NCBI GenBank assembly: GCA_030619925.1
Contig: JAUXAL010000008.1
Span: 1,509 to 65,508, forward strand
From: Phycisphaerae bacterium
Lineage (GTDB): Bacteria > Planctomycetota > Phycisphaerae > Sedimentisphaerales > Anaerobacaceae
DNA: 64,000 bases
Direction of reading: 5' to 3'
Positions within the stretch are counted from its first letter, which is position 1, and each line of letters starts with the position of its first letter. Of this stretch, positions 13,000 to 63,152 are shown in pieces. The notes beneath the pieces were generated by a model. It had not been told where the DNA came from, searched no databases, and saw nothing but the letters and a program-made list of their open reading frames with translations. A program made the position numbers and the translations under genes.

Positions 13000-13073
13000 T
13001 TTTGTTCCCTTTATTGAGCTTTGCGGCGTTAATACAATATAGTGGTCCATCACAACTCAAATGATGGATGAAT

Positions 13074-13167
13074 GTCATTCCTGCGAAAGCAGGAATCCAG
13101 ATGTATCGAAGTTCTGGATTCCGCATCAAAGCCTGCCCTGAGCAAAGCCGAATGGGTGCGGAATGAC
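13074..13167. repeat. 94-bp element with terminal inverted repeats gtcattcc(t)gc / gcggaatgac and two internal hairpins
   Basis: gtcattcctgc at 13074 and gcggaatgac at 13158-13167. Internal cctgc-gaaa-gcagg and ggaatccag...ctggattcc. Confidence 0.65.
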
Positions 13168-13245
13168 AATTCCTCAAATCATCTGTCACAGACCACCAGG
13201 GTGGCACCCTCAAACTTGTTTGGGGGTGTTCTCAACGAAAATCGA

Positions 13246-25066: not shown

Positions 25067-26309
25067 CACACGGAAATATCTCGGCCCAGACATAAAAACG
25101 ATACTGGCTGAGAAGGGCCTCGATAGCAATGGCCGGCTCTGGCGCGACCGGCTGGAGAACACAAGTGGCAGGGAGGTTGAAAGAGCTTTGGCTTGCGCCA
25201 CCGGTAGCTATAGTTTGGAGAAGCTGTTGGCGTTTATCTCGCCGGCCGCTGAAGATTACCTTGAAGAGATGGCGCAGTTAGCCCGGCAGCTTACCGTTCA
25301 AAGATTTGGGCGGACAATCAGACTTTATGCCCCGCTGTATTTGTCCAATTTCTGCGTCAACAGCTGCCGATACTGCGGCTTCAATAGAGAAAATAAATTT
25401 AAGCGAACCAGATTGACCATTGAGCAGGCTCTTACCGAAGCTGATATTATCGCAGCCGAAGGTTTTAGAGACATACTGCTTGTCAGTAGTGAAGATAGAA
25501 AAATTGTTAGCATTGAGTATCTTACGGAACTTGCGAAGAAACTGAGAAGCAAATTCAGCTCTATCTCGATAGAAGTATATCAGATGGGCGTCGCTGAATA
25601 TGCAAAGCTCTTTGAGGCAGGTATTAAGGGAGTTACGGTCTATCAGGAAACATATGACCGGGAGGCATATGCATATTATCATCCTGCCGGCCCAAAGTCT
25701 GATTATGATAACAGATTAGACACTCCGGACCGCGTTGCTGCTGCTGGTATGCGCGAGATTGGATTGGGCGTTCTTTTGGGCCTGGTCCCGTTAGAAGTTG
25801 ACGGCTTACTTCTAACGGGACAGGCGGACTGGCGAGTTGAGACCCTGGCCTTAGCCGAACATGCTCACTACCTGGTCAAACGCTATTGGCGGTCGCGCGT
25901 GTCGTTTTCTTTTCCAAGGCTGCGGCCTGCGTACCCCGCCCCTGAAGCAGTGGCGGGGCAGTCCAAGCATCTACTTAGTGATAAGAACCTTGTACAGATG
26001 ATGATGGCACTGCGATTGTGCTTCGCTGATGCGGGACTGGTGCTGTCAACTCGGGAGCGCGCCGAATTGAGAGACCGTCTGATTAAACTTGGGACAACCA
26101 AAATGAGCGCGGGCAGCAAGACCTGTCCGGGCGGATATTCGGAGCAGACAGATGCCCCGCCGAAGGCGGGTATGATCAGACCCTGCGTTGCCGGGAGGCA
26201 ATTTGAAATTGACGATAGTCGCAGCCCGGCTCAAGTGGCCGCTATGATAAGGGCCCAGGGCGCCGAACCGGTTTGGAAAGACTGGGACAGCGCTTTTGAC
26301 GAAGATTAG
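25053..26309 (+). CDS. thiH: 2-iminoacetate synthase ThiH (radical SAM)
   Basis: [10 protein letters not shown] radical-SAM cluster motif, [16 protein letters not shown]-terminus. 418 aa, i.e. longer than remembered ThiH (about 377 aa) because of in-frame insertions. Confidence 0.9.
25787..25819. repeat. 33-nt perfect hairpin element (CCCGTTAGAAG ... CTTCTAACGGG) inside thiH
   Basis: 11-bp perfect stem 25787-25797 / 25809-25819 with an 11-nt loop. It encodes part of [13 protein letters not shown], which interrupts the conserved LGL / DWRV segment. Confidence 0.85.
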
Positions 26310-46883: not shown

Positions 46884-47675
46884 ATGCACAAGGCAAGAGG
46901 GTTTACCTTGATAGAGCTTCTGGTGGTAATCGCCATCATTGCGTTATTGATGGCGATATTGATGCCGGCACTGCAGCGGGTCAAGCAACAAGCGAGGACG
47001 GCTGCTTGTCAATCGAAGCTGCACCAATGGAGCCTTGCCTTTTCGATGTATGCGACTCAGAACGATGGGCGTATGTTCGCAGCTTATCACGGCGGCGGCA
47101 CTACGGACAGCGACGTCTGGGGCAACGCCCTTCGGCCGTACTACAAGGAACCTGATCTGCGCCTGTGCCCAACGGCCATGAAGGCTTACGATGAGGGTGG
47201 CTCGGTCACATTTGGAGCCTATCGCAGGTCTCGCTTGCAACATCATAATGATCACGGTCTCGGAAGCTATGGGCTAAGTACCTGGGCCGGTAATGCTCCG
47301 CTGGGAATGGAGGCACATTACCAATATGAGACTAAATATCAGTGGAGGCGTTTCGATGTTAGGGATGCAGGTTACATACCGCTGTTGATGGATGCCCAGT
47401 GGGTCGATGGCTGGGCAATGGCCGTCGATGAACCGCCGGAATATAGTGGTGAGCCGTGGCAGGCCCGCGGCGGTCACACCGGTGGTCTCAGGCGTTTCTG
47501 CGTCAACCGACACAACGGCTTCACAAACGGTCTTTTTATGGATTTCTCTGTCAGGAAGATTGGACTTAAGGAGTTGTGGGAGCTTAAGTGGCATCGAAAT
47601 TGGACCGAAGAGAGAGCCAACGCCGGCACGCCCGTATGGCCGGATTGGATGAGGAATTTTAAAGACTACGACTGA
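46884..47675 (+). CDS. prepilin-leader protein, DUF1559/H-X9-DG-like family (paralog 1 of 8)
   Basis: [30 protein letters not shown] (prepilin cleavage/methylation motif). C-terminal NRH-x9-DF and GLKELWELKWH motifs. Confidence 0.85.
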   Translation: MHKARGFTLIELLVVIAIIALLMAILMPALQRVKQQARTAACQSKLHQWSLAFSMYATQNDGRMFAAYHGGGTTDSDVWGNALRPYYKEPDLRLCPTAMKAYDEGGSVTFGAYRRSRLQHHNDHGLGSYGLSTWAGNAPLGMEAHYQYETKYQWRRFDVRDAGYIPLLMDAQWVDGWAMAVDEPPEYSGEPWQARGGHTGGLRRFCVNRHNGFTNGLFMDFSVRKIGLKELWELKWHRNWTEERANAGTPVWPDWMRNFKDYD

Positions 47676-47900
47676 AAATGATTATTAGAAAAAAGCGGGC
47701 AAAAGAGTCCTGATTTTGTCATACTTATAAAACAGGATTATCAAAAGTAAAGTAGTTCTGAAAGGAAAGCAGGAAGGAGTGGAAACACTCTGGGAATATC
47801 CGGGAAAATGTTGGTCCAAGTCCCCTAGCAATCCCCACCCGGAGGGTCTGGCTAGGCCTGCTTTCCTTCTCCTACGAGGAGATATGCAAGGAACACTATC

Positions 47901-48746
47901 ATGGGTAAACCAAGAGGTTTTACATTAATTGAGCTTTTGGTGGTAATCGCCATAATTGCGCTGTTGATGGCGATATTGATGCCGGCGCTCCAGCGGGTAA
48001 AGCATCAGGCAAGGACAGTCGCCTGTCAGGCCTTGCTGAAACAATGGGGCGTTATCTGGTCGATGTATTGCGATGATAACGATGGCAATTTCAGCAGAGG
48101 TCTTGTTGGCGGCTCTGGATGGCATCGTGGAGAATGGATAATTTGCCTGCGGTCTCTGTACCAGACAAAGACAGATATTCTCCGGTGCCCGTCGGCCACT
48201 AAACGGCACCCTAATGGAAACCAGTGGGGCAGCACGTTCTACACCTACTATATGCCGTTGGGCGGAAGCGGCAGCATAGGAGGCGGTGAAGAACCCAGCT
48301 ACGGGGGAAACAACTGGATTTATGACCCGGCGGCGGGCACAAGCGCGATTCAGGGCCGACCGGCTGCATGGAACTGGAGGACCAAAAACGTCAAAGGTGC
48401 GGCCCTCGCACCGGTCTTCGCAGATGCCATGTGGAGAGGAGGCGGGCCTTGCTATCGTACTAATGAGAGTGGTCCACTCGACCCTAAATTCAACCGCATC
48501 ATTCCGCCCGAATACGACGGTCAATGGATCAACTACTCCAACGAAATGATGCACTTCGCCATCGACCGACACAACGCGTTTGTAAACCACCTTTTCATGG
48601 ATTGGTCCGTCAGAAGAGTTGGTATTAAGGAGTTGTGGAAGCTCAAGTGGCATCGCCGGTTCAGCGTAAACGGCCCTTGGACCAAAGTCGGTGGTGTCCA
48701 GCCCAGCGATTGGCCTCATTGGATGAGAAAGTTTAAAGAGCACTAA
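47901..48746 (+). CDS. prepilin-leader protein, DUF1559/H-X9-DG-like family (paralog 2)
   Basis: [33 protein letters not shown]-x9-DW, GIKELWKLKWH. Confidence 0.85.
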   Translation: MGKPRGFTLIELLVVIAIIALLMAILMPALQRVKHQARTVACQALLKQWGVIWSMYCDDNDGNFSRGLVGGSGWHRGEWIICLRSLYQTKTDILRCPSATKRHPNGNQWGSTFYTYYMPLGGSGSIGGGEEPSYGGNNWIYDPAAGTSAIQGRPAAWNWRTKNVKGAALAPVFADAMWRGGGPCYRTNESGPLDPKFNRIIPPEYDGQWINYSNEMMHFAIDRHNAFVNHLFMDWSVRRVGIKELWKLKWHRRFSVNGPWTKVGGVQPSDWPHWMRKFKEH

Positions 48747-48877
48747 GAAAATCACCGCTGCACAAAAGAGCGCAACTGCCAAAAAGTTGATAGAAAACAC
48801 CCTATGGCAAGGCTGCGATTCACCGGCTTTAGGGCGGGAGAACCATATTTTGATACTTCGCATTAACAAGTTTAATA

Positions 48878-48906
48878 TTGCAAAAAAAACAGATTCAAGG
48901 TATAAT
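48878..48906 (+). promoter_or_regulatory. sigma70-like promoter upstream of paralog 3
   Basis: TTGCAA - 17 nt - TATAAT, 30 nt upstream of ATG 48936. Confidence 0.55.
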
Positions 48907-48935
48907 ACCTCCCAGCAAGGGGAAAGGGTGCTGGT

Positions 48936-49904
48936 ATGAACAAATCAAGGGGTTTTACCCCGTTAGAAATCAGTCGAACTTGTCTGACGACAGTCAAGAT
49001 TCGGAAGGTATCAGAGCTTCGAGCGGGATTTCTAACGGGCCCCGTTAGAGACCCGAAGGACAAAGGTTCTAACGGGGCGGGGTTTACATTAATAGAGCTT
49101 TTGGTGGTAATTGCTATTATTGCATTACTGATGGCGATCTTGATGCCCTCACTGCAGCGCGTAAAGAAACAGGCAAAGGCAGTTGTTTGCCGGTCGAACT
49201 TGAAGCAATGGGGTGTCGTCTTTGCGATGTATACCGGCGACAACGACGGCTCTTTCCCCAGTGGTGATGTTGATAACGCCCCCATTAAGGATCCGACGGG
49301 GCTGTGGATGTATGCGCTACGGCCGTACTACAGTGACGGACAGCTACGCCTCTGCCCAATGGCCACGAAACCTTGGACGAAGGGAGCCCGGCAGCCGTTT
49401 GCAGCCTGGGGGCCTATCTCCTCCTATGAGCCCGGCTACTGGCCTACTGAGCCCGACACTCCAGCGGCTAATTACCTCAGCTATGGGCTGAATGACTGGG
49501 TTCGCAATACTCCACAGAAGTCTTCTCGCGGACTGGGTGGTATAGATAGACTTCCCTTGCTCTGGAGGACTCCCAATGTTAAAGGTGCAGGTAATATACC
49601 GGTGCTTTTGGACAGCTCCTTTTTCGGGTCCGATCCATACCACACCGATCAACCTCCGGAATATGATGGTAATGTGGTGGTGGAATTCAATCAAAATGAA
49701 ATGAAGCGTTTCTGCCTCAACCGACACCAAAATGGGACGACAAACGGCGTTTTTGTGGATTGGTCTGTCAGAGAGATTGGGCTTAAGGAGTTGTGGAAGC
49801 TCAAGTGGCATCGAGAGTTCGACATATCCGGCCCCTGGACCCAAGCCGGTGGCGTCCGGCCGAGCGATTGGCCCGAATGGATGAAAAGGTTTAAAGACTA
49901 CTGA
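48936..49904 (+). CDS. prepilin-leader protein (paralog 3) with a 43-codon insertion in the leader
   Basis: MNKSRGFT[PLE...SNGAGFT]LIELLVV, NRH-x10-DW, GLKELWKLKWH. Near-identical to paralog 6 over most of its length. Confidence 0.8.
   Translation: MNKSRGFTPLEISRTCLTTVKIRKVSELRAGFLTGPVRDPKDKGSNGAGFTLIELLVVIAIIALLMAILMPSLQRVKKQAKAVVCRSNLKQWGVVFAMYTGDNDGSFPSGDVDNAPIKDPTGLWMYALRPYYSDGQLRLCPMATKPWTKGARQPFAAWGPISSYEPGYWPTEPDTPAANYLSYGLNDWVRNTPQKSSRGLGGIDRLPLLWRTPNVKGAGNIPVLLDSSFFGSDPYHTDQPPEYDGNVVVEFNQNEMKRFCLNRHQNGTTNGVFVDWSVREIGLKELWKLKWHREFDISGPWTQAGGVRPSDWPEWMKRFKDY
48959..49077. mobile_element. two adjacent hairpin (MITE-like) elements with CCGTTAGA(A) terminal inverted repeats, in frame in the leader of paralog 3
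   Basis: Unit A has a 13-bp perfect stem, cccgttagaaatc (48959-48971) / gatttctaacggg (49027-49039). Unit B has a 10-bp perfect stem, ccccgttaga (49040-49049) / tctaacgggg (49068-49077). Confidence 0.7.
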
Positions 49905-50009
49905 AAATAACCGTCCCGCAAAAACGAACAAAAAAATACGATTTTGCCGAACTTATACAACAAAATTGCGAAAAGGAAAGCGGCGAAAAGACACCGAAGG
50001 AGTATTGGA

Positions 50010-50933
50010 ATGGATAAACGAAAAGGGTTTACCCCGTTAGAAAGAAATCGGATTCGGAAGGTACCAGAGCTTCGAGGGCGAGTTCTCCGCAGTCCACAGG
50101 ATGGCCAAGCCCAGATGGCCAAGCCCATAACGGGGTTTACCTTAATAGAACTTTTGGTTGTAATCGCCATTATTGCGTTACTGATGGCGATCTTGATGCC
50201 CGCACTACAGCGGGTAAAGAAACAGGCACGAGGGGTCGCTTGCCAGATGAACCTCAAACAGTGGGGCATTATCTGGGCAATGTATTGTGGCGATAACGAC
50301 GGCTACTGGCTTAGCGGCGAAGGCCGTGGCAGCGGCAGATGGTGGTTCCAGCCGATGAGTGAGCTCTACACTGTTGAGGCAAAGATACGGGTCTGTCCCC
50401 AGGCCGCTAAACCTTCCGGTCGCGGGAAAATAGGTGCGTGGGCGGATCATGCTTGGATAGTCACAGACCCAGGCATTGAATATATAGGCAGCTACGGCCC
50501 GAATGGGTGGATGTGCAACCATCGGCCGGGAGCGTCAACAGTATGGAGCCGCCCGACTAAGGATAGTCAAGGCAGGCTGATGCATTGGAAGACCCCCAAT
50601 GTTCAGGGTGCGGACAATATACCGTTATTTACCGGTAGTTGGTGGGTTGATGCCTGGCCAAGGGACAATGACCAACCTCCTGATATTACAGCCACCTACG
50701 CGGCGATCCCGGATAGGCCTAATACAAATGAAATGGAGCGCAATTGCGTCAACCGGCACGGTGGATTCTTAAACGGCCTTTTTTGCGATTGGTCCGCCAG
50801 AAAAATTGGACTTAAGGAGCTCTGGACATTAAAGTGGCATAGAACTTACGACATAAACGGCCCCTGGACCAAAGCCGGCAATGCCCAGCCAAGCGACTGG
50901 CCGATGTGGATGAGAAGCTTTAAGGATTACTAA
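50010..50933 (+). CDS. prepilin-leader protein (paralog 4) with a 36-codon insertion in the leader
   Basis: AAGGAG RBS then MDKRKGFT[PLERN...KPITGFT]LIELLVV, NRH-x9-DW. An alternative internal start, [14 protein letters not shown], is possible. Confidence 0.8.
50034..50132. mobile_element. 99-nt insertion flanked by the 9-bp direct repeat GGGTTTACC, with termini CCGTTAG / ATAACGG
   Basis: GGGTTTACC at 50025-50033 and 50133-50141. The interior shares gattcggaaggtaYcagagcttcgag with the element in paralog 3. Confidence 0.7.
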
Positions 50934-50977
50934 TAACGCTTCCAACGCAACGAAGGGATACGAAACGAATATCATTT

Positions 50978-51796
50978 ATGAACAAACAAAAAGGGTTCAC
51001 CTTAATAGAACTTTTGGTGGTAATCGCTATCATTGCGCTGTTGATGGCCATATTGATGCCGGCGCTGCAGCGTGTCAAGAAACAGGCAAAAGCCGTTGTT
51101 TGCCAGTCAAACCTCAAGCAATGGGGCACTATCTTTGCCATGTACACCAACGACAACAACGGCTTCTTTTCCAGACGCACGCAGTCGGGCGGTCGTTGGA
51201 TAAATGTCCTGTACGACTACTACTATCGGGAGGAGAAGATACGCGTCTGCCCGATGGCGACAAAAATTAAGGTCCCGTACCCGCCCGGGTCCACTAGCAC
51301 ACTTGTAGTAGGTGGCGACAAATTTACGTCATGGGGCAAGATCGGTATGACGCCAAACGAAAGTTGGGGGCCAGTCGGTACCTACGGCAGCTACGGGATA
51401 AATGGCTACCTTTATGTGCCAGGGAGCGACCCATTGTACGGAAAGCCGGCTGATTATTACTGGAGAACTCCTAATGTCAAGGGTGGATATAATATACCGA
51501 TGTTTCTGGACGGCTGGTTCTTTTGCGGCTGGCCAGAGCATACCAATACCCCCCCGAACTACGATGGAGACAGATGGGCAAGTGACGCAAATGCAATGAA
51601 CCGTTTCTGCATCAACCGTCACGACGGATTCATAAACGGCCTTTTTTGCGATTGGTCCGCCAGAAAAATTGGACTTAAGGAGCTCTGGACATTAAAGTGG
51701 CATAGAACTTACGACATAAACGGTCCCTGGACCAAAGCCGGCAATGCCCAGCCAAGCGACTGGCCGATGTGGATGAGAAGCTTTAAGGATTACTGA
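50978..51796 (+). CDS. prepilin-leader protein (paralog 5)
   Basis: [33 protein letters not shown]-x9-DW. The last 162 nt are virtually identical to paralog 4. Confidence 0.85.
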   Translation: MNKQKGFTLIELLVVIAIIALLMAILMPALQRVKKQAKAVVCQSNLKQWGTIFAMYTNDNNGFFSRRTQSGGRWINVLYDYYYREEKIRVCPMATKIKVPYPPGSTSTLVVGGDKFTSWGKIGMTPNESWGPVGTYGSYGINGYLYVPGSDPLYGKPADYYWRTPNVKGGYNIPMFLDGWFFCGWPEHTNTPPNYDGDRWASDANAMNRFCINRHDGFINGLFCDWSARKIGLKELWTLKWHRTYDINGPWTKAGNAQPSDWPMWMRSFKDY

Positions 51797-51840
51797 TAAC
51801 GTTTCCAAAGCGGCGAGGAGATACAGAGCGAATGTCATTT

Positions 51841-52698
51841 ATGAACAAACTAAAAGGGTTTACCCGCCATACGCGTGGCGGGTTTACCTTAATAGAACTT
51901 TTGGTGGTAATCGCTATCATTGCGCTATTGATGGCGATACTAATGCCCGCACTGCAGCGGGTGAAGAAGCAGGCACAAGCAGTTAAGTGTCAGGCACACC
52001 TTAAACAATGGGGTGTCGTCTTTGCGATGTATACCGGCGACAACGACGGCTCTTTCCCCAGTGGTGATAACACCGCTCCTAATGATCCGACGGGAATGTG
52101 GATGTATGTGCTACGGCCGTACTACAGTGACGGACAGCTACGCCTCTGCCCAATGGCCACGAAACCTTCGAATAAGGGAGCCCGGCAGCCGTTTGCAGCG
52201 TGGGGGCCCATCTCCTCCTATGAGCCCGGCTACTGGCCTACTGAGCCCGACACTCCAGCGGCTAATTACCTCAGCTATGGGCTGAATGACTGGGTTCGCA
52301 ATGATCCACGGACGTCTTCTCGTGGACTGGGTGGTATAGATAGACTTCCCTTGCTCTGGAGGACTCCCAATGTTAAAGGTGCAGGTAATATACCGGTGCT
52401 TTTGGACAGCTCCTTTTTCGGGTCCGATCCATACCACACTGATCAACCTCCGGAATATGATGGTAATGTGGTGGTGGAATTCAATCAAAATGAAATGAAG
52501 CGTTTCTGCCTCAACCGACACCAAAATGGGACGACAAACGGCGTTTTTGCGGATTGGTCTGTCAGAGAGATTGGGCTTAAGGAGTTGTGGAAGCTCAAGT
52601 GGCATCGAGAGTTCGACATATCCGGCCCCTGGACCCAAGCCGGCGGCGTCCAACCGGGCGACTGGCCGCTATGGATGAGAAACTTTAAGGATTACTAA
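51841..52698 (+). CDS. prepilin-leader protein (paralog 6) with an 8-codon leader insertion
   Basis: MNKLKGFT[RHTRGGFT]LIELLVV. Start set at the ATGAAC conserved with paralogs 5 and 7. Confidence 0.85.
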   Translation: MNKLKGFTRHTRGGFTLIELLVVIAIIALLMAILMPALQRVKKQAQAVKCQAHLKQWGVVFAMYTGDNDGSFPSGDNTAPNDPTGMWMYVLRPYYSDGQLRLCPMATKPSNKGARQPFAAWGPISSYEPGYWPTEPDTPAANYLSYGLNDWVRNDPRTSSRGLGGIDRLPLLWRTPNVKGAGNIPVLLDSSFFGSDPYHTDQPPEYDGNVVVEFNQNEMKRFCLNRHQNGTTNGVFADWSVREIGLKELWKLKWHREFDISGPWTQAGGVQPGDWPLWMRNFKDY

Positions 52699-52742
52699 TA
52701 ACGCTTCCAAAGCAACGAAGAGATACGGAACAAATATCATTT

Positions 52743-53525
52743 ATGAACAAACAAAAAGGGTTTACCTTGATTGAACTTTTGGTGGTAATTGCTATCATTG
52801 CGCTGTTGATGGCGATATTAATGCCGGTACTGCAGCGGGTGAAGAAGCAGGCACAGGCAGTTAGGTGTCGGGCACACCTTAAACAATGGGGGGTCGTTTT
52901 TGCGATGTACACCGGCGACAACGACAACAAATTCATGCACTGGAATGCAGGCGTATGGGTGGAACCGCTCAGGCCCTATTATAAAGACGTTGGTGAGGCA
53001 ATGCGTGTCTGTCCGACAGCTACAAGGAGTCTTGAGGAAGGAGCTCTTCATACGTTTGCCGCGTGGGACAGGGTAAATACGTACACCAAGGATGAGAGGG
53101 TTTATCGCGGCAGCCTTGGTATCAACAACTGGGTTTATAACCGGCCGCCGGGCGCAGACACCTCAGCTCTTATGTGGGGCAATCCCTCTGCCAATAACTG
53201 GACGGTTACCGAGATTAAAGGCGCCAACAATGTACCGCTGTTTCAAGATTGCTGGCGCTGGGGCGGTGCTCCATATGACACACGGGATAGCGCTTCTCCA
53301 AGCGGCTGGAATGAGCCTCCCCCGTATGAAGACATTTTCACGAATGGTTTTGGGCGTTTCTGTCTGAACCGGCACAATGGGACAATTAATGGCTGTTTTG
53401 TGGATTTCACTGTCAGAGCAATAGGGCTAAAGGAAATGTGGAGGCTTAAGTGGCATAGAGTATTCGATATACATGCTGAGTCGCCGGTTTGGCCGGAATG
53501 GATGAACAATTTCAGGGATTACTGA
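52743..53525 (+). CDS. prepilin-leader protein (paralog 7)
   Basis: [33 protein letters not shown]-x9-DF, GLKEMWRLKWH. Confidence 0.85.
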   Translation: MNKQKGFTLIELLVVIAIIALLMAILMPVLQRVKKQAQAVRCRAHLKQWGVVFAMYTGDNDNKFMHWNAGVWVEPLRPYYKDVGEAMRVCPTATRSLEEGALHTFAAWDRVNTYTKDERVYRGSLGINNWVYNRPPGADTSALMWGNPSANNWTVTEIKGANNVPLFQDCWRWGGAPYDTRDSASPSGWNEPPPYEDIFTNGFGRFCLNRHNGTINGCFVDFTVRAIGLKEMWRLKWHRVFDIHAESPVWPEWMNNFRDY

Positions 53526-53624
53526 GAAACAACCCTTGCACAAAAACCCACAAAAGATTATACTGGACTTGCAAGACAAAACTGCAAAAAGTAAACCAGC
53601 GAAGAATACAGAAGGAGTATCATT

Positions 53625-54437
53625 ATGGGCAAACAAAAGGCTTTTACCCTGATAGAACTTCTGGTGGTAATTGCCATTATCGCTATATTGATGGCGATAT
53701 TGATGCCCGCACTGAATAAAGCCAGAGAACAGGGCAAACGTGCGGCCTGCCTGAGCAATCTAAAGCAGCTGACACTTTCATGGATTATGTATGCAGATGA
53801 AAACGACGACAAAATTGTTAGCGGCGACGGAGGTGTTTGGCACACATATAATGGGGTCGTTGAGACCCCCTGGGTCGGCAGGTGTTGGCACAGTAATTAC
53901 AGAGGCGGCGACCAGCTACCGGTGGAAGAGCAAAAACTTGAAATCAAAAAAGGAGCTCTATGGTCGTATTGTAAGAACCTGCAGCTCTACCGCTGCCCGA
54001 CCGGTACGCGAGGAGAGCTGGTAACCTATGCTGCAATGGATTCTATGAATGGTCATCCTCTGCCGAATAATCCCAAGGGCAGAGGTGCAGACGCCGTCAT
54101 AAAGAGATTGCTCATTAAGAAACGGCTCACGATTCGCAGCCCGGATCAGAGGATAGTTTTTATTGATGAAGGCTGGGTAACACCGGACAGTTACGCTGTT
54201 TATCAAAATAGACAAGAATGGTGGGACGACCCTATGGTGCGGCACGGTAACGGGACGAGCGTTTCTCTTGCAGATGGTCACAGCGAATACTGGAAGTGGA
54301 AAGGCCCCGAGACGATAAAGGGCGGCAAGCTGCGCGACCGCACTCACCCTTCCCAGCATGTTGTGCCTCAAAGCGAGCCGGGCCACGAGGATTTGTACAG
54401 AGTCAGGAAGTCCTGTTGGTGGGAGATAGAGGGTTAG
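53625..54437 (+). CDS. prepilin-leader protein with canonical H-X9-DG motif (paralog 8, divergent subfamily)
   Basis: [40 protein letters not shown]-terminal [19 protein letters not shown] (H-x9-DG). Confidence 0.85.
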
Positions 54438-58869: not shown

Positions 58870-58938
58870 TTAATTATCCCTTTTATAATTTACTATTTAC
58901 TACTCTCCCCCCACGTGTTTTCTTTAAAAAATGTTTCA

Positions 58939-59101
58939 CCCCTGGCCTTTGGCCGGGGTAACTTTTTCTCGCCGTTGATTTAACCAAAAAAGGGCTGGCC
59001 AAGCCAGCCCTTAATTTCCTTTTATGTTTAGCCCCCGGCTTTGCCGAGGGTTGCTTTCCCGTTATGTTTAGCCCCGGCCTCTGGCCGGGGGTTGCTTTTT
59101 T
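58939..59101 (+). repeat. family of GC-rich hairpins preceded by ATGTTT(ag/ca)CCCC and followed by T tracts
   Basis: cccctggcc-ttt-ggccgggg (58939-58958), gggctgg-ccaag-ccagccc (58992-59010), ccccggcc-tct-ggccgggg + ttgctttttt (59072-59101). Direct repeat ttatgtttagcccc at 59021 and 59061. Confidence 0.65.
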
Positions 59102-61689: not shown

Positions 61690-63075
61690 TCACGCCCTTA
61701 GTTTAACACCGGCCGAAACATCCTGCTCCCAGGTGGCCAGCTCATCTTCAAGTGCCTTGACTCTCTCCGGCTCGGCCTCGGCAAGATTCTTCTTTTCAGC
61801 GAGGTCATCATCGAGGTTATAGAGTCTTATATCTTTGCCCTGAACCAGCAGTTTCCATGGCCCTTTGCGGACGGCCCTTTCTTTTCTGTAGCGCCAGAAC
61901 AGCGTCCGCTTCGGCACTTTTCGGCCCTCTACCAGCATCGGTAGAAGGTCGATACCATCGAGCTTCAGGCCCGCCGGCAGTTTTGCCCCGGCGATTGATA
62001 CCATCGTAGCAAACAAGTCCATCCCTAAAGCCGTCTGGCCCGTAACCGTCCCGGGTTTTATTCTCCCCGGCCAATAGGCAACAGCCGGGACGCGGTGCCC
62101 GCCTTCCCATAAGCTGCCTTTGTAGCCGGATAGTGCACCGTTGGAGCCGTTCTTGGTAGCGCCGTTGTCGGAACAGAAAAAGATAAATGTCTTGCGTTCC
62201 AGCCCTAAGCGCTTGACCGTCTCGACAATTCGTCCGATACCCTCATCCATCACCTCGACCATTTCCTTATACGCCCGGGTAATCTCCTTGCCTTTGGCTT
62301 TTTTGCCCTTCCTGCCGCCACCCAGACGCTCCGGCGGGTCGTCCCGGCCCTGGTAAGGATAGTGCGGCGCCTCATGCGGCAGATACAGACAAAATGGTTC
62401 GTCCTTGTGCCGCTCTATAAAATCTATCCCGTGCCTGGTTATCAAATCAGTGCAGTAACCTTCTTCGGGGACCTTCTCGCAATCCTTCCACCAGTCTTCG
62501 AAGCCGGCCCCGTCGATATGCGAGTGATAATCAACATTGCCACTGACATAACCGATAAACTCGTCGAACCCCTGCCTGGCTGGATTGAACTGGACGTTGT
62601 AGCCTAAGTGCCACTTGCCGAAAATGCCCGTCGCGTAACCGTGTTTTCTGAGCACCTCGGCAAAGGTTATTTCTTCCAGCGCAATTCCGGTTTGTCGAGT
62701 CGGCCCTTTTGCATAGATGACGCCCTCGATGCCGCTGCGCTGCTGGTAGCGTCCCGTCAGCAGCGCCGCCCGTGTCGGACTGCACACCGGACAGTTGGAA
62801 TGATAATCCGTAAACTTCATTCCCCCTTTCACCAAGGCATCGATATTGGGCGTCTGTATCTTTTTGCTGCCATAGCAGCCAACGTCCCCGTACCCTAAAT
62901 CATCCGCCATAATCAGGATTATGTTGGGCCGTTCTGCCGCCGTCTTCGAGAAACCACCCACTTTGCCTGTTGAGCAGCCGTAGTTCGGCATCGCCATCGC
63001 TGCTGTTCCCCCAATCGCGAACTTAATAAATTCCCGTCGATTCACCCCGTTAAAAATCCTCGCTTTTTGTCTCAT
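61690..63075 (-). CDS. arylsulfatase-family (formylglycine-dependent) sulfatase with Tat-type signal
   Basis: MRQKARIFNGVNRREFIKF leader after an AAGGAG RBS, PNIILIMADDLGYGD and CSPTRAALLTG motifs. Start moved to ATG 63075, since the upstream ORF part is repeat element. Confidence 0.85.
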   Translation of the reverse strand: MRQKARIFNGVNRREFIKFAIGGTAAMAMPNYGCSTGKVGGFSKTAAERPNIILIMADDLGYGDVGCYGSKKIQTPNIDALVKGGMKFTDYHSNCPVCSPTRAALLTGRYQQRSGIEGVIYAKGPTRQTGIALEEITFAEVLRKHGYATGIFGKWHLGYNVQFNPARQGFDEFIGYVSGNVDYHSHIDGAGFEDWWKDCEKVPEEGYCTDLITRHGIDFIERHKDEPFCLYLPHEAPHYPYQGRDDPPERLGGGRKGKKAKGKEITRAYKEMVEVMDEGIGRIVETVKRLGLERKTFIFFCSDNGATKNGSNGALSGYKGSLWEGGHRVPAVAYWPGRIKPGTVTGQTALGMDLFATMVSIAGAKLPAGLKLDGIDLLPMLVEGRKVPKRTLFWRYRKERAVRKGPWKLLVQGKDIRLYNLDDDLAEKKNLAEAEPERVKALEDELATWEQDVSAGVKLRA

Positions 63076-63090
63076 ATTCTTACTCCTTTT

Positions 63091-63146
63091 GAAATCTTGA
63101 CTCTTGACTGTCGTCAGACAAGTGTCGTCAGACAAGTTTCTAACGG
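63091..63146 (-). repeat. partial copy of the CCGTTAGAA hairpin-element family in the sulfatase 5' leader
   Basis: The minus strand reads ccgttagaaa-cttgtctgacgaca-cttgtctgacgacagtcaag-agtcaagatttc. The 20-mer cttgtctgacgacagtcaag is identical to 48979-48998. Confidence 0.75.
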
Positions 63147-63152
63147 CGTTCA

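Follow-up and report, generated by a model that had tools for sequence, protein, structure and literature searches.

The prepilin array and its interrupted leaders

The stretch of DNA analysed here in full, hereafter the window, comprises 64,000 nucleotides (nt) of contig JAUXAL010000008.1 from a Phycisphaerae bacterium (assembly GCA_030619925.1), and the element in question is a short palindromic insert located in the leader of the fourth gene of a prepilin-like array. This array (46884-54437) consists of eight tandem paralogous prepilin-like genes with a common N-terminus, whose N-terminal methylation motif is recognised by Pfam. The start codon of paralog 4 is preceded by the Shine-Dalgarno (SD) sequence GAAGGAG and is homologous to the start codons of the other paralogs. 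Owing to the insert, the leader of paralog 4 reaches 41 amino acids (aa) versus about 6 without it, and the Pfam N_methyl match lies at residues 42-63, whereas it covers residues 1-27 in the uninterrupted paralog 5. The cleavage motif is thus doubled. The second motif displays all the features of a class III prepilin signal (Gly at -1, Phe at +1, Glu at +5 and a hydrophobic helix), and the first one, G/FTPLE, retains the Glu at +5 with no hydrophobic helix after it.

Among the eight paralogs, an insert separates two Gly-Phe-Thr triplets in paralog 3 (129 nt, duplication included), paralog 4 (108 nt) and paralog 6 (24 nt), and each of these occupied motifs harbours a different insert. The motif is uninterrupted in paralogs 1, 2, 5, 7 and 8, which represent empty sites. 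The mature parts of paralogs 3 and 6 are 92% identical, yet their inserts at the same site differ, which implies separate insertion events. Paralogs 4 and 5 are 95-98% identical over their last ~180 nt and about 50% identical in their middles; such mosaic identity across the array suggests gene conversion. The main features are collected in Table 1.

Table 1. Coordinates of the paralog 4 gene, of its insert and of the other copies found in the window (positions are those of the window; bp, base pairs)
Feature	Position	Strand	Details
Paralog 4 prepilin-like gene	50010..50933	+	307 aa from the ATG at 50010
Left 9-mer GGGTTTACC	50025..50033	+	Flank GGG, duplication TTTA and first CC of the element
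Left target-site duplication TTTA	50028..50031	.	Register from the 123 copies and from the test of lengths modulo 3
Inserted palindromic element, 104 nt	50032..50135	.	Outer pair C...G; left terminus CCCGTTAGAAAG; degenerate right terminus CATAACGGG
Subfamily-specific internal 26-mer GATTCGGAAGGTACCAGAGCTTCGAG	50051..50076	.	Common to the paralog 3 insert and to metagenome copies
Secondary interruption of the right arm, 42 nt (GAGTTC/.../TAACGGGG)	50086..50127	.	Position ambiguous by 1 nt
Right target-site duplication TTTA	50136..50139	.	
Right 9-mer GGGTTTACC	50133..50141	+	Last GGG of the element, TTTA and flank CC
Paralog 3 leader insert, nested pair	48954..49086	.	13-bp perfect arms
Paralog 3 unit A	48958-49039 + outer G 49082	.	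Duplication TTTA 48954-57 / 49083-86; inserted length 87 nt
Paralog 3 unit B	49040-49077	.	Inserted in the terminal CGGG of unit A, duplicated at 49036-39 / 49078-81; inserted length 42 nt
Paralog 6 leader insert	51859..51886	.	20-nt mini-hairpin CCCGCCATACGCGTGGCGGG at 51863-51882 between TTTA copies 51859-62 / 51883-86
thiH copy	25782..25824	.	Hairpin with a perfect 14-bp stem, 25785-25821; modelled element 25786-25820 (35 nt)
Copy in the sulfatase Tat signal	63041..63152	-	Element 63045-63148; duplication TTCA/TGAA 63041-44 / 63149-52

Anatomy of the paralog 4 insert

A first reading of the same DNA, made from the sequence only (the sequence-only reading), had noticed that the 9-mer GGGTTTACC flanks the insert as an exact direct repeat. 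The two copies are indeed present, 108 nt apart, and their outer neighbours differ (a/g before, c/t after), so that the exact repeat is 9 nt long. As GGGTTTACC is found six times in the window, every time at the Gly-Phe-Thr codons of prepilin paralogs, this repeat is not random. The right copy encodes the Gly-Phe-Thr of the second motif, which matches Pfam N_methyl and is the putative functional cleavage motif. The other structural details of that reading were also recovered. CCGTTAGAAA opens the intervening 99 nt and ATAACGG closes them, the inverted termini reaching 9 bp if neighbouring bases are included (ACCCCGTTA / TAACGGGGT); the 26-mer GATTCGGAAGGTAYCAGAGCTTCGAG is common to the inserts of paralogs 3 (48998-49023) and 4 (50051-50076); and the 14-mer GATGGCCAAGCCCA occurs twice in tandem (50100-50113 and 50114-50127), inside the 42-nt interruption listed in Table 1. 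The whole insert is in frame and contains no stop codon.

The nine identical positions do not, however, all result from a duplication. Four of them belong to the duplicated target, three correspond to the Gly codon GGG, identical to the last GGG of the element, and two to the CC of the element, identical to the CC of the flank. Pilin-leader copies of other genomes always have GGG as the right codon, and GGA, GGC or GCA as the left Gly/Ala codon. With a variable left codon and a constant right one, the additional matches in paralog 4 are coincidental and only TTTA(C) is duplicated.

A metagenome scan with an internal 24-mer common to paralogs 3 and 4 detected four loci (L123-L126). L123 is an in-frame copy in a non-pilin open reading frame (ORF), with perfect GCCCGC flanks, and L124 and L125 are decayed pilin remnants. 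The paralog 4 element is homologous to unit A of the paralog 3 insert and to L124-L126, among which L126 is an intact relative located in the same codons. Since the right arm of L126 is intact (GGGGAGTTCTAACGGGG), that of paralog 4 is read as interrupted by 42 nt. This interruption has no 4-nt flanking repeat, and the sole match found for it is the 18-mer GGATGGCCAAGCCCATAA, which recurs in L046, where it adjoins another arm of the family described below. The paralog 4 copy retains 8-9 bp of terminal inverted repeat (TIR) and folds with a terminal 8-bp helix (-36.2 kcal/mol), only modestly better than its shuffles (z -2.2), versus z values of -3.5 to -7.1 for intact copies. Globally, its sequence indicates a composite and decayed copy that is probably no longer mobile.

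An in-frame ATG located within the insert (50115-50117) would yield a leader of normal length; upstream of it there is only a weak and distant AGGA. This ATG, a product of the 14-nt duplication, could serve as an alternative start.

A family of short palindromes spread across many phyla

The termini of the intact copies, CCCGTTAGAA and TTCTAACGGG, define a family that extends far beyond the array. A DNA census with the pattern CCCGTTAGAA-N(3-33)-TTCTAACGGG, covering one genome per species (596 Gb), identified at least 120 loci, whereas about 17 matches would be expected by chance according to our own arithmetic. Among the matches listed, the hosts include, from record titles, Omnitrophota, many lineages of Patescibacteria, Nitrospirota/Thermodesulfovibrionia, Desulfobacterota and Planctomycetota (Phycisphaerae and Pirellulales), as well as Clostridia, a gammaproteobacterium and one Aenigmatarchaeota archaeon. 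As several of the contigs reach 130-750 kb, misbinning does not explain the spread across phyla for at least those. The insertion that the sequence-only reading saw in the leader of paralog 4 is real, and its element is specific neither to pilins nor to this genome.

The cores of the family are 24-104 nt long, and many copies have only 24-31 nt of near-perfect hairpin. The statistics that follow concern 123 copies among the census matches listed. A perfect 11-13-bp stem, made of (C)CCCGTTAGAA and 1-2 further paired bases, is present in 107 of the 123 copies. The base pair just outside CCCG/CGGG is C-G in 90 copies, T-A in 17, A-T in three and G-C in three, and positions 11 and 12 of the stem covary, with four Watson-Crick pair types.

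For 54 of the 123 copies, an ORF of 80 aa or more runs through the element. In one frame, the termini are read CCG-TTA-GAA ... TTT-CTA-ACG-GGG and encode PLE...FLTG; in another, they are read CCC-GTT-AGA ... TCT-AAC-GGG and encode PVR...SNG; the third frame contains TAG and TAA. As the palindrome is read in two frames, the conserved entity is a nucleic acid and not a peptide. A protein search with the leader of paralog 3 retrieved dozens of prepilin-like proteins from Planctomycetota, with leaders of the type GFT-PLE(I/V)... that contain interchangeable modules.

Some individual loci deserve mention. In other phyla (L042, L050 and L111), in-frame copies that each add ~10-19 residues are found in conserved housekeeping genes, which, from their flanking residues, look like those of TsaD, UvrA and the 5'-3' exonuclease domain of DNA polymerase I. 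On a metagenome contig from JGI (L121, 500-830), a prepilin-like leader that hardly differs from the paralog 3 leader precedes additional nested elements, and no pilin body comes after it; this region is called as a 135-aa protein (P0002), apparently the product of a gene made almost wholly of repeat elements. Furthermore, the palindrome was detected on ten viral contigs; flanking repeats accompany it in some cases, and in others it resembles an ordinary terminator, which gives weak support at most to viruses as vehicles of the palindrome.

A search of Rfam (E up to 10) over the array region returned only a chance ctRNA match outside the inserts. [quoted passage not shown] On this limited literature evidence, the family is apparently undescribed.

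A 4-nt target duplication and a symmetric target

The copies are generally flanked by direct repeats whose sequence varies from one copy to another, such as tttac[...]gtttac, ttgac[...]gttgac, cgagc[...]gcgagc or ctcat[...]atctcat. With the register fixed as left[-5:-1] = right[+2:+5], the flanks of 69 of the 123 copies form an exact 4-nt direct repeat, whereas 1000 shuffles of flanks between copies gave a mean of 11.0 and a maximum of 22, and the neighbouring registers 0-3 copies. The sequence-only reading held that other copies lacking flanking duplications would favour recombination or slippage over transposition; by this criterion transposition is favoured, as the repeats exist and nested copies have their own. 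A 9-nt duplication is rejected by the flanks from other genomes and by the lengths modulo 3; models of 5 and 6 nt account for only 29-36 and 12 of the 123 copies, respectively, and inverted instead of direct flanks for four.

The duplicated 4-mers are of 14 different types, all YNNR, the commonest being TTTA/TAAA (32 copies), followed by TTCA/TGAA (nine copies). G and C are favoured just outside the duplication, leading to the symmetric consensus G/TWWA/C, with GTTTAC as the commonest sequence. The preferred target is this consensus and not GGGTTTACC, the candidate raised by the sequence-only reading; the hexamer is merely contained in the Gly-Phe-Thr codons.

The reading frame provides an independent measure of the duplication. 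Where an ORF of 150 aa or more spans the copy, 32 of 33 inserted lengths (counted as core + 2 + 4) are divisible by 3, versus 29 of the 69 listed copies without a spanning ORF; over all copies, the figure is 73/123 (p = 4e-9 against one third). The intragenic copies use only the two stop-free frames. Together with the register test and with the 13 residues added to ThiH (see below), these lengths establish a duplication of 4 nt. Finally, elements inserted within elements, each with its own duplication, are found at L086, L047, L021, L054 and L090 and in paralog 3 of the window.

Thus, of the transposition signature seen by the sequence-only reading in paralog 4, the non-autonomous inverted-repeat element and its target duplication stand, and the length of the latter, 4 nt (TTTA), replaces the 9 nt proposed.

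Other copies in the window

The window contains five copies of the family at four sites and two related mini-hairpins, one in paralog 6 and one at a second site in thiH. The 4-nt duplication and the preservation of the reading frame hold for five of the six insertion sites, i.e. three prepilin leaders, one twin-arginine translocation (Tat) signal and one site in thiH, and two of the four sites of the family display perfect stems of 13-14 bp.

In paralog 3, both units have the termini CCCGTTAGAA / TTCTAACGGG, and deletion of unit B leaves unit A between its TTTA copies. The mini-hairpin of paralog 6 belongs to a second, related family, CCCGCC...GGCGGG, with the same 4-nt ends and the same target, which also has its own flanking repeats in L127.

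The thiH copy has a flanking repeat with one mismatch (CTGG/CAGG), and its 39-nt insert adds 13 residues. The solved ThiH structure 7pd1 and the homologue 4wcx align with a gap of exactly 13 residues opposite this insert; as 13 residues correspond to 39 nt, that is 35 + 4, the gap matches the prediction of a 4-nt duplication. At the second thiH site (26156-26170), a 15-nt mini-hairpin of the CCCGCC...GGCGGG family, CCCGCCGAAGGCGGG, sits in a second stretch of 13 extra residues relative to 7pd1. The flanks of this mini-hairpin have no clean 4-nt repeat, and 15 nt alone cannot explain 39 nt.

The sulfatase gene has a Pfam Sulfatase match and a weak TAT_signal match, below the curated cut-off. 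Its copy, which has a 21-mer in common with unit A of paralog 3, occupies 104 + 4 = 108 nt in frame (MN/AVRN...IFNGVN/RREFIK), and its excision restores the start ATG-AAT-CGA-CGG (MNRREFIK), which overlaps the upstream stop codon. From its sequence, it is an in-frame insertion in the n-region of a Tat signal peptide. This copy contains an SD-like AAAGGAG and an in-frame ATG (MRQKARIFNG...), and translation of the sulfatase could now start inside the element.

The window harbours 28 GTTTAC/GTAAAC sites, seven of which are at prepilin Gly-Phe-Thr motifs, four of these being the pairs that flank the inserts of paralogs 4 and 6. No insert was found at any GTTTAC/GTAAAC site of the window other than the prepilin motifs.

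Nature and possible mobility of the element

The family has TIRs of about 10 bp or more, a target duplication, a small size without coding capacity, and dispersed and nested copies, as do MITEs. We therefore consider, with good confidence, that the insert of paralog 4 derives by decay from a short palindromic element of MITE type, non-autonomous and with ends C·CCCGTTAGAA...TTCTAACGGG·G.

The following scenario would account for it. An enzyme acting in trans would cut the target with a 4-nt stagger at the roughly symmetric G/TWWA/C, and repair of the stagger would duplicate the 4 nt. As the first base of the element is C and the last one G, the hexamer, such as GTTTAC, would be rebuilt on both sides; as GGG-TTT-ACC contains GTTTAC, every prepilin-like gene would be a good target. 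Two of the three reading frames of the termini are free of stop codons. Only the copies that preserve the frame would persist in genes. Prepilin peptidase cuts type IV prepilins next to the hydrophobic helix; the additional residues would fall in the leader and would be removed at the second, intact site G/FTLIELL. The product of paralog 4 probably has a longer cleaved leader with little effect on the mature protein, and the element likely persists at prepilin leaders through tolerance of the position. The paralog 4 copy would later have gained the 42-nt interruption of its right arm, including the 14-nt tandem duplication.

Several points weigh against this interpretation. Neither an autonomous partner nor an enzyme was found in the searches reported below, so that mobility is deduced from structure. 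Cores of 24-31 nt are very short for a classical double-stranded DDE synaptic complex, and the staggered-cut mechanism may be wrong even though the footprint fits. The flanking repeat has more than one mismatch in 40 of the 123 copies. In an EF4/LepA-like gene (L077, 2410-2442), a match to the pattern (PVRMRYRASNG) has no flanking repeat and corresponds to residues that we take to be native LepA sequence without extra length; this match appears to be a chance or convergent one rather than an insertion, and calls for caution with censuses based on the pattern only. Some viral matches resemble terminators. Gene conversion among the tandem paralogs could spread inserts without fresh transposition, and both the cleavage of the leader at the second site and the neutrality of the insert are presumptive.

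Search for an enzyme or an autonomous partner

As stated by the sequence-only reading, the window encodes no transposase; none was found among its ORFs, including those of at least 70 aa in the gaps. Clustering of 1174 ORFs from 120 loci of the census showed recurrence of housekeeping families and of the pilin family only, and no transposase. Long-range pairs of arms with matching flanks (L028 and L047) enclose ordinary genes, and scans of the collection cannot span kilobase gaps. BLAST searches of the inserts of paralogs 3 and 4 against plasmid and phage collections gave no match. Candidate autonomous units would carry CCCCGTTAGAA inverted ends.

The available clues diverge. The symmetric target and the 4-nt stagger suggest a dimeric DDE-type enzyme, but the hairpins of 24-31 nt, with the covariation of stem positions 11 and 12 and of the outermost pair, are a better fit to a folded single-strand substrate. 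Since C-G, T-A, A-T and G-C are all found as outermost pair while the stem is kept perfect, the requirement seems to be structural and not one of sequence. This leads to a bolder proposal, which we put forward tentatively and regard as doubtful: the family would be a distinct class of ultra-small mobile hairpins, with units of ~30 nt moved as folded single strands by an unrecognised enzyme acting in trans, and not by a classical transposase of double-stranded inverted repeats. These hairpins would cross the boundaries of phyla and possibly, given the one Aenigmatarchaeota match, of domains; their stop-free termini would have evolved to allow their maintenance in genes, and cleaved leaders (prepilin and Tat) would be their safe havens.

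Alternative explanations

An improbable alternative is that the hairpin has, or has acquired, a function in the gene, either as a structure of the mRNA just downstream of the start codon that tunes translation or stability, or as part of a long pro-peptide selected in Planctomycetota. The architecture GFT-PLE...FLT-GFT is indeed common among the prepilin-like proteins of this phylum, the stems are stable, the covariation mentioned above could be understood in the same way, and the start of the element, CCG-TTA-GAA (Pro-Leu-Glu), mimics residues +3 to +5 of the cleavage motif (Leu-Ile-Glu). However, copies of the palindrome that have target duplications of their own also occur in unrelated genes, in intergenic regions and in other phyla; the peptide is not conserved, since two reading frames are used; the palindrome is absent from five of the eight paralogs of the array, and near-identical paralogs 3 and 6 carry different inserts. 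Furthermore, the right arm of the paralog 4 copy is broken, and Rfam contains nothing similar.

An origin by unequal recombination, slippage or gene conversion among tandem paralogs with near-identical 5' ends is already disfavoured and seems very unlikely. It would agree with the mosaic identity of the array, typical of gene conversion, with the 14-nt tandem duplication inside the paralog 4 insert and with the 26-mer, for which a common origin in the two inserts is possible. The inserted DNA is, however, unrelated to pilin sequence; the same termini are found in thiH, in the sulfatase leader and at the loci of other phyla, with their own 4-nt flanking repeats, and slippage produces neither conserved inverted termini nor nested copies.

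As for ribosomal bypassing, in which identical GGG-UUU-ACC triplets would serve as take-off and landing sites and allow some ribosomes to make a short-leader prepilin, the matched 9-nt sites around a stable hairpin in paralogs 4 and 6 and the mobile, intragenic character of the family recall the bypass elements (byps) of Magnusiomyces mitochondria, but the first motif is not followed by a stop codon, skipping a stop-free insert in frame is unnecessary, the intragenic copies are nearly all multiples of 3, which implies translation, and the two sets of triplets differ in paralog 3 and in other genomes; judged from the sequence alone, this explanation would have a negligible likelihood.

Comparison with known systems

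In behaviour, the closest relatives are the RPEs, palindromic repeats without transposase that are inserted in frame in unrelated genes and translated (PMC10969869). In both cases, the palindromes are intragenic and in frame, and the mobilising enzyme is not identified. RPEs are, however, ~100-150 bp long and restricted to Rickettsia, whereas the CCCGTTAGAA family has cores of 24-104 nt, different termini, a distribution over many phyla, and a clear 4-nt target duplication with a target consensus. The likeness, compared by description only, would therefore be an analogy and not membership.

In structure, the family corresponds to MITEs, which are defined by TIRs of at least 10-15 bp and a target-site duplication of 2-10 bp (PMC11602168). 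Prokaryotic MITEs (such as Correia elements, Nezha and ERIC) likewise display inverted termini, a target duplication, an absence of coding capacity, many dispersed copies and nesting. Typical ones are 50-800 bp long and ~90% intergenic (PMC11602168), unlike the many CCCGTTAGAA copies of less than 35 nt that consist of a single near-perfect hairpin, often within ORFs. In addition, the searches described above found no parent insertion sequence (IS) with the same ends for the family.

REPs and the larger units that they form (REPINs) are, like the family, very short hairpin-forming repeats. In REPINs, pairs of REPs or longer hairpins are the mobile unit, on which RAYT, a REP-associated tyrosine transposase of the Y1 HUH type, acts in trans from a single-copy gene. 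As with REP/REPIN, the small size of the family is easier to reconcile with a folded single-strand substrate. REPs are not known to be flanked by target duplications. They are extragenic and carry a GTAG or CGTC tag (PMC3733652). A REP/REPIN-RAYT assignment was rejected: the copies are often intragenic, lack those tags and have a variable 4-nt duplication, and no Y1-like ORF is present in the window.

Three further systems were also rejected. Elements derived from the IS200/IS605 family share with the copies described here a central role of hairpins in recognition, and the IS608 target, TTAC, resembles the commonest flank, TTTAC. However, the IS200/IS605 family has no TIRs and generates no duplication; its flanking tetra- or pentanucleotide lies on the left side only and is fixed for each element, IS608 inserting 3' of TTAC, whereas the CCCGTTAGAA family has inverted termini, constant ends and variable repeats on both sides (14 4-mers). 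Integron attC sites are imperfect palindromes with an inverse core RYYYAAC in 5' and a core GTTRRRY in 3', arranged in cassette arrays. GTTAGAA and TTCTAAC resemble these core boxes but in the opposite order (GTTAGAA in 5'), the copies are single and dispersed and not in arrays, and the TT that the crossover requires is missing from the start of their flanking repeats. Lastly, bypass elements (T4 gene 60 and the byps) are likewise intragenic hairpin inserts between matching codons; those inserts are untranslated and often out of frame or with stops, unlike the frame-preserving, stop-free inserts of the family. Programmed bypassing involves matched take-off and landing codons, a stop or hungry codon after take-off and an untranslated gap. 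In paralogs 4 and 6, codons do match, but the gap contains no stop and is open and in frame.

Implications

The main interest lies in the wider family rather than in the single copy of paralog 4. The doubled Gly-Phe-Thr motif and the long, variable leaders of many prepilin-like proteins from Planctomycetota would be selfish DNA inserted in the codons of the cleavage motif, and knowing their origin helps in calling start codons, annotating leaders and predicting signal peptides. Hairpins of this kind can also be a source of error when genes are called, or homologues sought, in metagenome-assembled genomes. In-frame insertions of palindromes in genes, so far described chiefly in Rickettsia, would be a feature of many uncultured phyla as well, and the clean 4-nt duplication and symmetric target consensus, which RPEs lack, offer concrete clues to the enzyme. 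The data also suggest, as a general principle, that intragenic mobile elements are tolerated when they land in N-terminal leaders that are cleaved off (prepilin and Tat).

Other repeats in the window

A different, widespread palindromic repeat, GTCATTCCTGCGAAAGCAGGAATCCAG ... GCGGAATGAC, is located at 13073-13170. It encodes the spurious peptides 'IPAFAGMT' and 'FLRKQESR', which are found in many metagenome-assembled genomes. In L027, a CCCGTTAGAA element is nested in a copy of this type of repeat (gtcattcccgcttg[...]caagcgggaat). A single intergenic region (58938-59092) carries three related GC-rich hairpins, ACCCCTGGCCTTTGGCCGGGG, AGCCCCCGGCTTTGCCGAGGG and AGCCCCGGCCTCTGGCCGGGGG, each followed by TTGCTTT or T-runs. 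They resemble a repeated terminator-like unit and have no relation to the CCCGTTAGAA family.

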